DNA from: Eledone cirrhosa
Lineage: Eukaryota
Assembly (NCBI GenBank): GCA_964016885.1
Contig: OZ024742.1
Location: forward strand, 281,852,001-281,916,000
Length of the DNA: 64,000 bases
Direction: 5' to 3'
The position numbers were made by a program, and so were the translations under genes. Below the pieces are notes generated by a model. The model did no database searches. It saw only the letters and a program-made list of their open reading frames with translations, and was not told the origin of the DNA. Each line of letters starts with the position of its first letter. Positions within the stretch are counted from its first letter, which is position 1. Below are positions 18,325 to 55,930 of the stretch, one piece after another.

Positions 18325-19140
18325 ACAGTTGAAGAGTAACCAATCTTGAAGAGAGATGGAGATAGGTGATGAGATAGGAGAGGAGAGATTGGAGAATTAG
18401 TTAGAAACCAAAGCGTAAAGGCATGTGCTCAATGTGCAATATGCAGTGGAAAGCAGCTAGGTGGCTGGGTTCATGCAAACGTTAGTCGAGCAGAGCTGGA
18501 AATATTCATTAGTTAAGCAAAACAAGACCACAAATTTTACAAGGAAGACATTATTAAAAGATTGTCAACATATTTTAGTTTGATGTAAGGAATGTAGAGA
18601 ATAATAATAATAATATTAATAATAATTGTTTCTACGTTAGGCATAAGGCCCAGTGCATTACTGGTACTTTATTTTATCGACCCCGTAAGGATGAAAGGCA
18701 AAGTTAACCTATAATATTAATAATAATAATGTCCGTTTACAATTGTTTCGCTACTCCATATAATATTTCTGGATCAAATGACTATATATCATTATTGATC
18801 TGGTTCAGTTGAAAATAATTAACATAATTAAAGATAGAGCGGCTCATCGGAACTTCAAAGGAATATAAATTAAATTAAGGAAAGAATGCTACATAATGTA
18901 GTGTTCCATATATTGGTATTTCACTATGGTGGCCTGGATGTATCAATTGTCTGTCATAATCAAGCAGTATTCTTCTGTCGAGGCTGCATTGTGTGAGATC
19001 TGCCTATGGTTAACATTATTATTATTAATATTATTATTATTATTCTCTACATTCCTTACATAAACTAAAATATGTTGACAATCTTTTAATAATGTCTTCC
19101 TTGTGAAATTTGTGGCCTTGTTTTGCTTAACTAATGAATA
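18325..19140 (-). mobile_element. pLTR of PLE family G with inverted end; SINE fragment inserted at 18623-18710
   Basis: Homologous to 44210-44623; 19014-19140 is inverted versus 18500-18625. Confidence 0.7.
18735..18853 (-). ncRNA. Hammerhead with 94-nt domain II and U4C core
   Basis: gtt CCGATGA gccgctcta...tggagtagc GAAA caattg TA aac. Confidence 0.6.
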
Positions 19141-19351
19141 TATATATATATATATATATATATATATATATATATATATATATATATATACATATTAGTA
19201 AATTCGTATTCCAATGTTACTAAGTAGTTGCATTGGATGGAGTCAACCGACGTCAGAGATTGCTCAACGTATAATAAAGTGTGTTTTAAAATCCGGAGAA
19301 AATATGGAGAAGAAGTTTATGAAATGGAAATGCGGGTATACAGAATTTATT

Positions 19352-19468
19352 AGGTAACAATTGTTTCTATAGTGTATGGGTTACCTATACCTCGCTATTT
19401 GAATAATATAAAAACATTATCATAAACCGAACGTACACTGTAAGCAAACACACCATGTCGTCAGACCT
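19352..19468 (-). ncRNA. Hammerhead with 90-nt domain II, in a decayed PLE 3' end (about 19195-19900)
   Basis: aggt CTGACGA c atggtgtgt...atacactat a GAAA caattg TT acct. Confidence 0.75.
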
Positions 19469-19910
19469 TTGTATTGGAATGATATGAAAATATTTTATAC
19501 ACTAGATAAAAGATAAAGAAGAAGGTAGGAAGAGAAGGGGAAGAGGGAAGTGAGTAAGGTGGAGGGAGTCTTAGGATTTAAGACTGTCAGACTAGTAGAG
19601 ATTGTAAGGAGAGAATGTTTTGGCAGCAGTTAGCTTAATGAGGCGTGTTAGGGTTGGCGGGGGAAGTAAATTCTTCTAGTGGTGTTGTTCGGACAAAATT
19701 TAGTTAAAGGGGTCAAAGTGGTACAGTGTCACAGACAAGTTATTGGGGCTATTATAGTAGCAGGTTATTTCTAAAGGGGTCCAGAAAACAGTGTTTAGTA
19801 CTATTATTATAGAAAGCCATATCTTGTGTATAAACATATAAAACAGAAATTTGCAAACGGTGGTGTAAAAAGGTAACATTATATGCATTTAAAAAAAGAA
19901 AAAGTCGTTT

Positions 19911-53597: not shown

Positions 53598-54593
53598 AAA
53601 TTTTTTAATATAAGGAACTATATCTTTGTTTTTATTCATTGTTTTTATTAATTTATATATATATATATCAAGTAATTCCGTCGGAAAGGTCCAGGAAAAA
53701 AGAGTGTTCTACTGGTAAATGAAATAATTGCCTTATGTTGTTTATTACATAACTATATATATATATATATAACGAAGGAAATATGGTAAGGAACCAGATG
53801 GACCATAACTCACCAAAGTACACAATACTTAGAGTAGTAGAGTGGGTAATAGGAACAAGTATGACCCCGACGGCAGAGCTCAAGCCGTTTCGACTGCTAA
53901 TTCAGTCCAGAATTGAGCTCTGCCGTCGGGGGTCATACTTGTTCCTATATATATATATATGTGTGAATGGGTATATATGTGAATGTGTATATATATGTTA
54001 ATGTGTATATATATATATATGTATGTATGTGTGTATTATGAATGCATGTATGCATGTTTACATATATGTATGTACGTATCCATGTATTTAACACATATGT
54101 ATATGCCTTGTATAAAATATTTATTTGCATACATATAACAGCACACGATTAAATATGTACACACAAACACACACACATACATATATATATATAAAGACAT
54201 ACATATGTAGAGACATATATATATATGTACACACATATATATATATATATATATATATATATATATATATATATGTGTGTGTGTGTGTGTGTGTGTGTGT
54301 GTGTGTGTGTGTGTGTGTGTACATATGTATATCTTTATATATATATATATATATATATATATATATATATATATATATATATATATATATATATATATAT
54401 GTGTTTATACATATATATATATATATATATATATATATATATATATATATATATATATATATATATGCAAAAGTTCTATTTAAATTGTTGGGATACAACA
54501 AGCAAATATTTTTATAACTGATATAAAGCACTCAACAAGTATTTGGAGTAAACATGCGATATTAACAAATGGAAAGTATATTTATAAAACCAT

Positions 54594-54661
54594 ATTTATG
54601 TTATTATACATATTTCAAGGACACCACGTTAAATTATGGTATGCTTTCATCAGACAAAATA
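54594..54661 (-). ncRNA. Type I hammerhead inside a small foldback (54555-54733)
   Basis: tattttgt CTGATGA aagcatacca taatttaacg tggtgtcctt GAAA tatgtataa TA acataaata. Confidence 0.65.
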
Positions 54662-55817
54662 CAATCAGTTTTATAAATAAATATTGACATACCCTTAATA
54701 TTATAAATATAGTTTCCATTTGTTAATATCGTATAAATATATATATATATGTACACACACACACACACACACACACACACACATATATATATATATATAT
54801 ATATATATATATATACATGTACATATATATATACAAGCACACACGCACATACATGAACGTATTCCCATGACATAGCCAATCCACACGGCCACTGACAACC
54901 ATTTAATATAAAGTGGTTGTTTCCACGCAAGACAACTGAAGTCAACCAGATATAAGATTGATTCCAATCTGCACGTCACTCTGTATATTAAACCCACTGC
55001 GTTCAGCGCCCCCTCCCGGTGGCATAAATACATTCTGTGTATGTCAATGTGTGTGTTATGTGTGTATGTATAAACATATATATATGTGTCTGTGTGTGTG
55101 TGTGTGTGTGTGTGTGTGTGTGTGTGTGTGTATGTGTTTGTGTGCTTGTTTTTGGGTCGTGTGTATTGTGACACGTATATATAATATATATATAATATAT
55201 ATATATATATATATATATATATATATATATATATATATATATATATATATATATATATATATATATATGTATATATATATAGTAGAGTGGGTAATAGGAA
55301 AAGAGTCAGAACTCCGATGGCTGAGCTCCGGCCGTTTCGACAGCTAGATCCGAAACGGCCGGAGCTCAGCCGTTGGGGTCCTGACTCTTTTCATATATAT
55401 ATATATTTATAAATATGTCGTTTGTTGTCGTTGTAAGTGGTTTTACTGTAGCTGTTGTTTTAGTTGTTATTGTCAATAGGGTGATGGTATCAGCACGACT
55501 ATTGCGACCAGTGTGGACAACTTTGGTCGGCGGTTTGATGTTATTGTCATTGTTGTTGTTGTAGTTGTCGTTGTTGTTGTAGCTGTTGTCTATAGGTGGT
55601 CGTCAACTAAATATAAACCCCTCCTCCCTCAGAGCTCCTTGTGTTGCTTCAAGTGTCTACTGGATTTTGGTTACACACAGTTCTTCGATATTTTCGTCTT
55701 TTTTCGTTGATAGCTTTTTCTAATAAACGCGACGGCTGGCGAATCCTTCAAAGAACTCATATGTATGCTGGGCGCACAGGCATTATGATGTGTGTTTTCC
55801 TGCCAGCGACATATCAA

Positions 55818-55930
55818 ATATATCGATTTTCATCTGAGGAAACCGTTCTCATAATGAACAGCAAATGCATGAAGGACATCTCGATTGCATAGAGAACCGT
55901 AGAAATAATTATTCTGATTAATCAATATAT
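55818..55930 (+). ncRNA. Hammerhead with 61-nt domain II
   Basis: atatatcgattttcat CTGAGGA a accgttctc...gagaaccgt a GAAA taatta TT ctgattaatcaatatat; first stem I pair mismatched. Confidence 0.6.

Follow-up and report, generated by a model that had tools for sequence, protein, structure and literature searches.

Long, folded domain II inserts in type I hammerhead motifs of Hydra-clade Penelope-like elements and retrozyme-like repeats of Eledone cirrhosa

Hammerhead ribozyme (HHR) motifs are already known from the pseudo-long terminal repeats (pLTRs) of Penelope-like elements (PLEs), from Hydra elements and from tandem retrozymes. The minimal hammerheads of PLEs (min-HHRs) have type I topology, a pLTR location, a palindromic domain III suited to dimers, an extra nucleotide after A9, a short stem I and thousands of truncated copies (PMC4209133), and the published descriptor allows a stem II of 3–7 bp and a loop 2 of 3–10 nt, giving a domain II of at most about 26 nt (PMC4209133 Fig. 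S7). Hydra-clade elements are diagnosed by RWK, DKT replacing DKG, a CxCX5C linker and, at the C terminus, a GIY-YIG domain with flanking CxxC and CxH (PMC8557442). In File S2 of that paper loop 2 is 3–10 nt in all Hydra rows, and domain II reaches about 26 nt, the single cephalopod entry included. Here we describe hammerhead motifs with a domain II of 49–101 nt in a stretch of 64,000 nt from Eledone cirrhosa (contig OZ024742.1, positions 281,852,001 to 281,916,000; hereafter the window), which is microsatellite-rich with a GC content of 35% and belongs to an assembly of 3.0 Gb. These lengths lie beyond the min-HHR descriptor, which cannot find the motifs, as an earlier sequence-only reading of the window had expected of length-limited searches.

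The motifs share all the min-HHR features listed above, but their domain II is 49–116 nt over all families and contains several helices, and two window families have a U4C core. With the tabulated Hydra-clade hammerheads they share the clade ORF (open reading frame) motifs, (TA)n targets and a position near the 3' end. In the same File S2, PLE-X1_sMoe and PLE-X1_sTam are flagged as deviating and have an enlarged loop 2, with a 9-bp stem plus 35 nt (~54 nt) and with a 29-nt loop. The 54-nt domain II from spike moss, which the sequence-only reading did not mention, is a direct precedent for our class of about 50 nt; these are two plant families of another clade, and neither comes near 80–116 nt. 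In the mostly open-access literature searched, no description was found of an 80–116 nt structured domain II in PLE hammerheads, of an internal-loop pseudoknot of the kind described below, or of U4C fixed in a retroelement family.

Judging from pattern and structure searches, tens of thousands of Penelope-type copies in this genome carry a hammerhead motif, predicted to be self-cleaving, with a domain II of 49–116 nt, where 10–30 nt is usual. The window holds nine copies from seven families (Table 1), which we named A2 (18735; domain II of 94 nt), B (19352; 90 nt), E2 (32074; 49 nt), E (three copies at 33–34 kb; 51 nt each), A1 (44219; 98 nt), C (53464; 101 nt) and D (55818; 61 nt). All nine have the first core segment, the long domain II, GAAA, NUH and a perfect palindromic domain III of 8–10 nt. 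The core positions C3U4G5A6N7G8A9, G12A13A14, A15.1-U16.1 and H17 are all present in B, C, D, E and E2, while the cores of A1 and A2 read CCGANGA (U4C, at 44223 and 18850), the majority state in both families. Stem I has 3–7 bp in eight of the nine copies, with only 3 contiguous pairs in the A2 copy, and 0 bp adjoining the cleavage site in the D copy, where the majority of the D family pairs. The sequence-only reading had placed every site correctly, each with core, palindrome and NUH. Its figure of about 51 nt was too long for E2, it had passed over the two U4C cores, and its pairing stem I fails in the D copy. It had proposed a basal stem II of 6–15 bp; in C and D, 2 bp are followed by a C.C mismatch and only then by the long stem. 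Apparent motifs of 61–76 nt at 11869, 16170, 37326, 40950 and 56103 were rejected as ordinary 18-nt hammerheads with a later GAAA, and a candidate at 44916 does not fold. A repeat search of the window was dominated by microsatellites.

Each of six families searched in the genome gave 625–1,676 first-look candidates (1,676 for A2), and the best 40 were 91–100% identical. A structural descriptor, which misses motifs with weak short stems, was then applied to 112 segments of 10 kb (1.12 Mb), which start at round coordinates and come for the most part from the four largest contigs. It returned 76 matches, with 16, 32, 15 and 13 in the domain II classes of 8–21, 22–39, 40–69 and 70–119 nt. The reversed sequence had no match, and three locally shuffled versions had 1, 1 and 2. 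Hence 28 of the 76 sampled motifs have a domain II of at least 40 nt, 13 have at least 70 nt, and the lengths form a continuum from 11 nt to the maximum of 116 nt. When the stem II requirement was dropped, real sequence gave 43, 30, 16 and 16 matches for 6–26, 27–39, 40–69 and 70–130 nt and reversed sequence 2, 0, 3 and 6, an excess of 41, 30, 13 and 10. Generally, long forms (at least 40 nt) make up about one quarter to one third of the sampled motifs, and more than half exceed 26 nt.

Genome-wide counts come from exact patterns without structure and include some false rows. They are 10,758 for 44–60 nt (0 reversed), 5,946 for 72–100 nt (5 reversed; with a CCGA core, 4,275 versus 3) and 9,691 for 102–130 nt (31 reversed). 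Two of 30 retrieved loci of the 72–100 nt class (L285 and L289) were false at that length. The count for a D-family pattern (2,139 versus 9) was discarded, because about half of the rows listed were short hammerheads with a second downstream GAAA. Rfam reported no hammerhead at E<=10 for eight long motifs or the E region, and none was among the 150 matches listed of 212 from a scan of the window; short PLE hammerheads were missed as well, so that the result is uninformative on length.

The motifs of A1, A2, B, C and D, and so of five among the seven families in the window, end Hydra-clade PLEs, whereas the sequence-only reading had placed at least two in pLTRs of possibly Hydra-clade elements. 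Their motifs are in sense orientation, about 400–1,200 nt downstream of a GIY-YIG endonuclease (EN) frame. For example, locus L331 is a near-complete B element with the order pLTR(HHR)-ORF-pLTR(HHR), in which the upstream motif lies about 200 nt before the conserved N-terminal block and the frames contain RIRWR, ADKT, YRDD, CNCTKPGTC (CxCX5C), CKLC and CNH; B thus reads RWR where the Hydra consensus is RWK. The linker and EN motifs are also present in A1, A2 and C, with matching blocks in the published Hydra alignment, and Pfam gave a single sub-threshold GIY-YIG match among 7 frames. The window copy of B sits in the pLTR of a young Hydra-clade element, and that of A2 is the 3' end of a 5'-truncated Hydra-type element (predicted cut after 18738). 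Other A2 copies have Hydra EN remnants about 380–460 nt upstream, the EN remnants upstream of C hammerheads elsewhere are 60–95% identical (mostly >75%), and in the D copy L339 a Hydra EN runs continuously upstream.

A Hydra-like ORF was found upstream of 24 of 40 B, 11 of 45 C, 9 of 29 A, 2 of 24 D and 1 of 14 F matches (F is a family of 78–82 nt from outside the window), and of none of the 122 E, 14 E-like, 16 G and 7 H62 matches; in these counts overlapping loci recur, and most copies are 5'-truncated. Six 3' untranslated regions (UTRs) of A1, A2, B, C and D elements were examined, and in all six no complete hammerhead other than the long motif lies between the ORF stop and the 3' end. Another Hydra family of the window has a 26-nt motif at this place. 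Each of six families analysed has two discrete 3' ends running into (TA)n, which resemble the two-ended PLE tail signature tied to two start sites of the reverse transcriptase (RT) (PMC11167929).

Two side observations concern the element ends. The F, B and H62 families have a conserved AAUAAA 5–10 nt past stem I, which could be a polyadenylation signal. In one C subfamily (window 53219-53470; L335:3319-4480), a repeat of about 180 nt that looks by eye like a tRNA-derived short interspersed element (tRNA-SINE) lies at stem I; an apparent target duplication rebuilds the hammerhead downstream, the composite has been amplified, and some copies hold two units.

Alignments indicate that the inserts stay folded across diverged families, with compensatory changes in three groups (E, F and C). 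The 15 sequences of the E group share a 6-bp stem and a distal hairpin separated by an internal loop, with 96.0% of 420 cells paired, against 36–58% for slid partners. Both sides change at 7 of 28 pairs, and there are 32 such cells versus 10.3 in shuffled alignments and at most 2 with slid partners. In the F group (15 sequences with a mean column identity of 73%), 90.5% of 285 cells are paired and both sides change at 4 of the 7 pairs of the inner helix, while C3, G5, A6, G8, A9, GAAAC and UGU stay invariant as the insert diverges. Its internal loop keeps an unpaired GUA on the 5' side and GA on the 3' side. In the C group (10 sequences) the figures are 95.2% of 330 cells, with both-side changes at 4 of 7 basal pairs, and length variants arise through tandem duplication. 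The covariation analysis covered E, F, C and A; B has too few variants. The domain III palindrome is kept through changes (CAAUUG, CGAUCG, UAAUUA and CUAAUUAG), and the two core halves are jointly conserved across copies, as the sequence-only reading required, with core, GAAAC and palindrome invariant beside a diverging insert. The folds themselves differ by group: B, C and F form rods, G has a three-way junction, and E an internal loop with hairpin. The F internal loop may resemble a bulged-G/loop E motif. The B insert contains an 8-nt complement of the cleavage site and of stem I's 3' strand (window 19356-19385, minus strand), which may form an off-state fold.

For the E type the alignments suggest a specific role. 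The 5' side of its internal loop is complementary to the stem I loop, and the two probably pair as a covarying pseudoknot, with the variants GAGAAU/AUUCUC, GAAAAG/CUUUUC, GGAAAA/UUUUCC and UGAAAA/UUUUCA. All six matches from distant families of 48–50 nt have 5–6 bp at the equivalent place, one of them with an unrelated sequence (UUGAGU/ACUCAA). The pairing amounts to at most 4 bp in eight of the 30 distinct E variants, and several of these eight are truncated or mutated copies. In a range of 45 nt, the output listed shows no conserved partner for such a pseudoknot in A, B, C, F or G. Pairing of the insert with the downstream tail, attractive by eye, was dropped, as a p<0.05 relative to shuffled tails was obtained for only 2 of the 69 families scored. 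Pseudoknots joining stems I and II, with at least 4 pairs, occur in all three hammerhead types and raise activity in other hammerheads; in those cases a terminal loop pairs with a tail, whereas in E a loop would pair with an internal loop inside the extended domain II (PMC3088659).

E and E2, which the sequence-only reading had not recognised as non-coding, are retrozyme-like repeats by their sequence features, namely tandem non-coding units, one type I hammerhead in each and a GC content below 45%. The unit is about 560 nt (520–570 nt between neighbours in 51 of 61 pairs), GC is 37%, and no frame exceeds 53 codons, which is the longest stop-free stretch of the window element. Being tandem, non-coding and low in GC, they fit the non-LTR retrozymes (PMC7229834), for which a PLE origin has been proposed (bioRxiv 10.64898/2026.07.22.740005), and they also share PLE-like ends with them and a stem I internal loop for a tertiary contact (PMC7229834). 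They differ in a unit of 520–570 nt instead of about 300 nt, in an internal loop and distal hairpin that replace loop 2, in a contact of Watson-Crick pseudoknot type, and in being known here from sequence alone. The E unit of about 558 nt also forms long head-to-tail arrays over about 50 kb (G000:C2:312615761-312666038), and on contigs of two organisms (organism codes B and C) it gave only 3 and 4 records. The G family (domain II of 93–97 nt with a three-way junction) occurs in tandem units of about 1 kb (L340 and G000:C1:60206504-60207626).

A search of 80 Hydra-like loci on metagenome contigs gave 57 sense matches in 48 loci, all of 11–30 nt; two 186-nt matches inside ORFs were treated as chance, and the reversed control had 2 matches. 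As Hydra-like relatives from other hosts are short, the long domain II is likely derived in this lineage. An EN tree of Hydra-like sequences only (39 rows and 141 columns, with 28 of the 48 metagenome loci; one row of our own was dropped for length) places the eight rows from families of at least 79 nt on one side of a branch (97/85) and groups D with the 26-nt family (96/74). This suggests a single origin of the large class and a separate origin of D, rather than showing them, because the tree has long branches and is rooted at its midpoint. A very abundant family (G000:C1) has a domain II of 11–12 nt with a stem of only 2–3 bp and shares the CAAUUG palindrome with long families, so domain II length is labile. 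Dimers across families through the shared domain III palindrome are possible in principle.

From the above, we consider it probable that these are type I motifs whose domain II has grown to 49–116 nt, folds on itself, and leaves them able to cut the tandem transcript as dimers. Two motifs would pair through the palindromic domain III, perhaps aided by the protein of the element, and the predicted cut falls after NUH, 50–290 nt before the two 3' ends of the element. The insert would close stem II as a long folded cap. In the E type of about 50 nt, its first internal loop may dock on the stem I loop through the pseudoknot of 5–6 bp and so replace the loop 1–loop 2 contact of ordinary hammerheads. 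In the types of 79–116 nt the extra helices probably grew by local duplication, and we propose that the need to fold away from the core is the main reason for their being kept. This scheme builds on the observed position, copy number, core, palindrome, compensatory changes and short relatives, while dimer formation and cleavage after NUH are carried over from PLE hammerheads (PMC4209133, PMC6765202).

Several results weigh against this scheme. The core of A1, A2 and many F copies is U4C, which considerably lowers activity in vitro, although a natural viroid hammerhead with U4C functions in vivo (PMC3088659), and in an Anolis PLE cleavage is dispensable for insertion in vitro (PMC11167929). Stem I has just 3–4 bp in A1, A2 and B, and the basal stem II opens with a mismatch in every window family except A2. 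In 22 families of at least 70 nt, the hammerhead-compatible fold costs a median of 5.6 kcal/mol over the minimum free energy (MFE) structure (2.7–4.3 in shorter groups), and the basal stem II is present in the MFE structure of just 11. The number of covarying pairs is not clearly above shuffles (23, 104 and 58 of 500 for E, F and C), and kinship among sequences inflates the remaining measures, so that the covariation is good but not formal evidence; A shows little of it (1 pair). The mean pseudoknot length of own E pairs (5.1) is barely above that of cross pairs (4.7), since a single sequence is shared by most variants. As a separate observation, several long families often have the U4C core, and some CUGA copies there may be products of CpG decay.

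Another explanation, possible but in our view unlikely, is that the insert is mainly a protein-binding site for recognition by RT or EN or for chaperoning, through which the RNA would be marked as a template or cleavage would be turned on. The hammerhead of the Anolis PLE cleaves only with its ORF protein (PMC11167929), reverse transcription would begin at the 3' ends, with the inserts 50–290 nt upstream of them, and U4C cores may need outside help. Moreover, the unpaired GUA and GA of the F internal loop are invariant, and the families of at least 79 nt fall on one side of the EN-tree branch. However, A, B, C, D, E and G share neither sequence nor fold, close Hydra relatives transpose with 11–30 nt, and the Anolis minimal template begins at +20, which is 3' of where stem II starts (PMC11167929). 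The single RT-recognition or regulatory module suggested by the sequence-only reading is not supported: the inserts of groups A to G differ in sequence and fold, and lengths run continuously from 11 to 116 nt. The E-type pseudoknot is the one specific role of an insert for which there is evidence.

It is doubtful, and rather improbable, that the motifs are no longer ribozymes and that their RNA fold is kept for template folding or transcript stability with negligible cleavage. At least 4,275 genomic matches have a fixed U4C, stem I of A2 is weak, the cleavage site of B is covered by an 8-bp helix that competes, and published PLE min-HHRs cleave poorly (PMC4209133). On the other side stand the remaining core positions, NUH and the palindrome, which are invariant across families at 73% identity, and the viroid hammerhead with U4C that works in vivo (PMC3088659). 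Very improbable is that splicing turns the motif into an ordinary short hammerhead or takes out half of it, with some inserts acting as short spliceosomal introns or as carriers of a splice donor: PLE pLTRs carry introns, one of which in D. virilis ends abutting helix I (PMC4209133), C has an invariant GUAUGU and a UAG 42–54 nt apart, with changes on the partner side only in the helix that contains the GUAUGU, and F has GUA...UAG about 47 nt apart, but these introns would be very short, F lacks a G at +5 and covaries inside the stretch, and A, D, E and G have no such site pairs.

A more speculative reading, also unlikely as it stands, is that domain II is an evolvable accessory domain, used as a pseudoknot docking arm in one superfamily, while in the large Hydra subclade structured inserts of 80–116 nt would be family-specific binding sites for the element's own RT/EN protein that license cleavage by deliberately weakened U4C cores. 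If true, the genome would hold tens of thousands of natural hammerheads gated by protein, which current descriptors do not see.

The Clec2 hammerhead of mammals is of type III, with its insertion in loop 1. This discontinuous ribozyme likewise tolerates a large insertion between its halves, but it is found in the 3' UTR of a single-copy mRNA, the insertion is several hundred nt, and no retroelement is involved (PMC6765202). The Naiad 'half cores' were also considered as long-domain II hammerheads and rejected, since GAAAC lies upstream of CUGAUGA in the one entry checked (PMC8557442). By eye, the 'half core' consensus of cephalopod Naiad elements has two short helices and looks permuted, not broken (PMC8557442).

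Table 1. Hammerhead motifs and related features in the window (positions counted from its first nucleotide)
Feature	Position	Strand	Remarks
Comparison hammerhead	9886..9940	-	domain II 26 nt; downstream of Hydra-type frame 11083-11781, equivalent position
A2 hammerhead	18735..18853	-	core CCGAUGA (U4C) 18850-18844; domain II 94 nt, 18843-18750; palindromic domain III
B hammerhead	19352..19468	-	domain II 90 nt, 19457-19368; predicted cut after 19356
E2 hammerhead	32074..32153	-	domain II 49 nt: 6-bp stem, internal loop, 9-bp hairpin; diverged E relative
E element	33181..34565	.	minus-strand tandem units and inverted copy, flanked by (TA)n tracts
E hammerhead, tandem unit 1	33251..33332	-	domain II 51 nt; non-coding tandem repeat of ~560 nt
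E hammerhead, tandem unit 2	33811..33892	-	560 nt from unit 1
E predicted pseudoknot	34279..34312	+	between the loop of stem I (34279-34284) and the internal loop of domain II (34307-34312); covariation
E hammerhead, inverted copy of same insertion	34287..34368	+	predicted cut after 34363
A1 partial inverted pLTR	42456..42623	-	3' half of hammerhead only
A1 decayed Hydra-type RT and GIY-YIG EN frames	42607..44241	+	window copy without most of the 3' UTR
A1 hammerhead	44219..44343	+	core CCGAGGA (U4C); domain II 98 nt, 44230-44327; predicted cut after 44339
C copy 2, dead	46569..46700	-	GAAAC lost
C Hydra-type RT/EN frames	48124..49551	+	sequence frames
C hammerhead	53464..53597	+	rod-like domain II 101 nt, 53478-53578; stem I 7 bp; predicted cut after 53590
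D hammerhead	55818..55930	+	domain II 61 nt, 55841-55901; stem I-breaking change at cleavage junction

The window also contains other repeats. Two copies of another PLE family, 92.6% identical (12154-14929 and 37613-40047, minus strand), are Neptune-like by the linker as labelled by eye and have ordinary hammerheads with an 18-nt domain II in direct and inverted pLTRs. A decayed endonuclease/RT pair at 19911-21841 (minus strand) is presumably LINE-like (long interspersed element), and a fragment at 32652-33068 (plus strand) is what we take to be a mariner-like transposase.

Catalogues of natural hammerheads rest on length-limited descriptors, and with more than half of the sampled motifs above the 26-nt limit, PLE and retrozyme censuses in some invertebrates may undercount badly. 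Aptamers are grafted onto stem II of hammerheads in synthetic biology, and the long-domain II motifs are natural counterparts of such grafts. The families form a natural series of 11–116 nt on one catalytic core, which permits tests of the role of the hammerhead in PLEs and of whether a weakened core may be rescued by peripheral structure or by protein.

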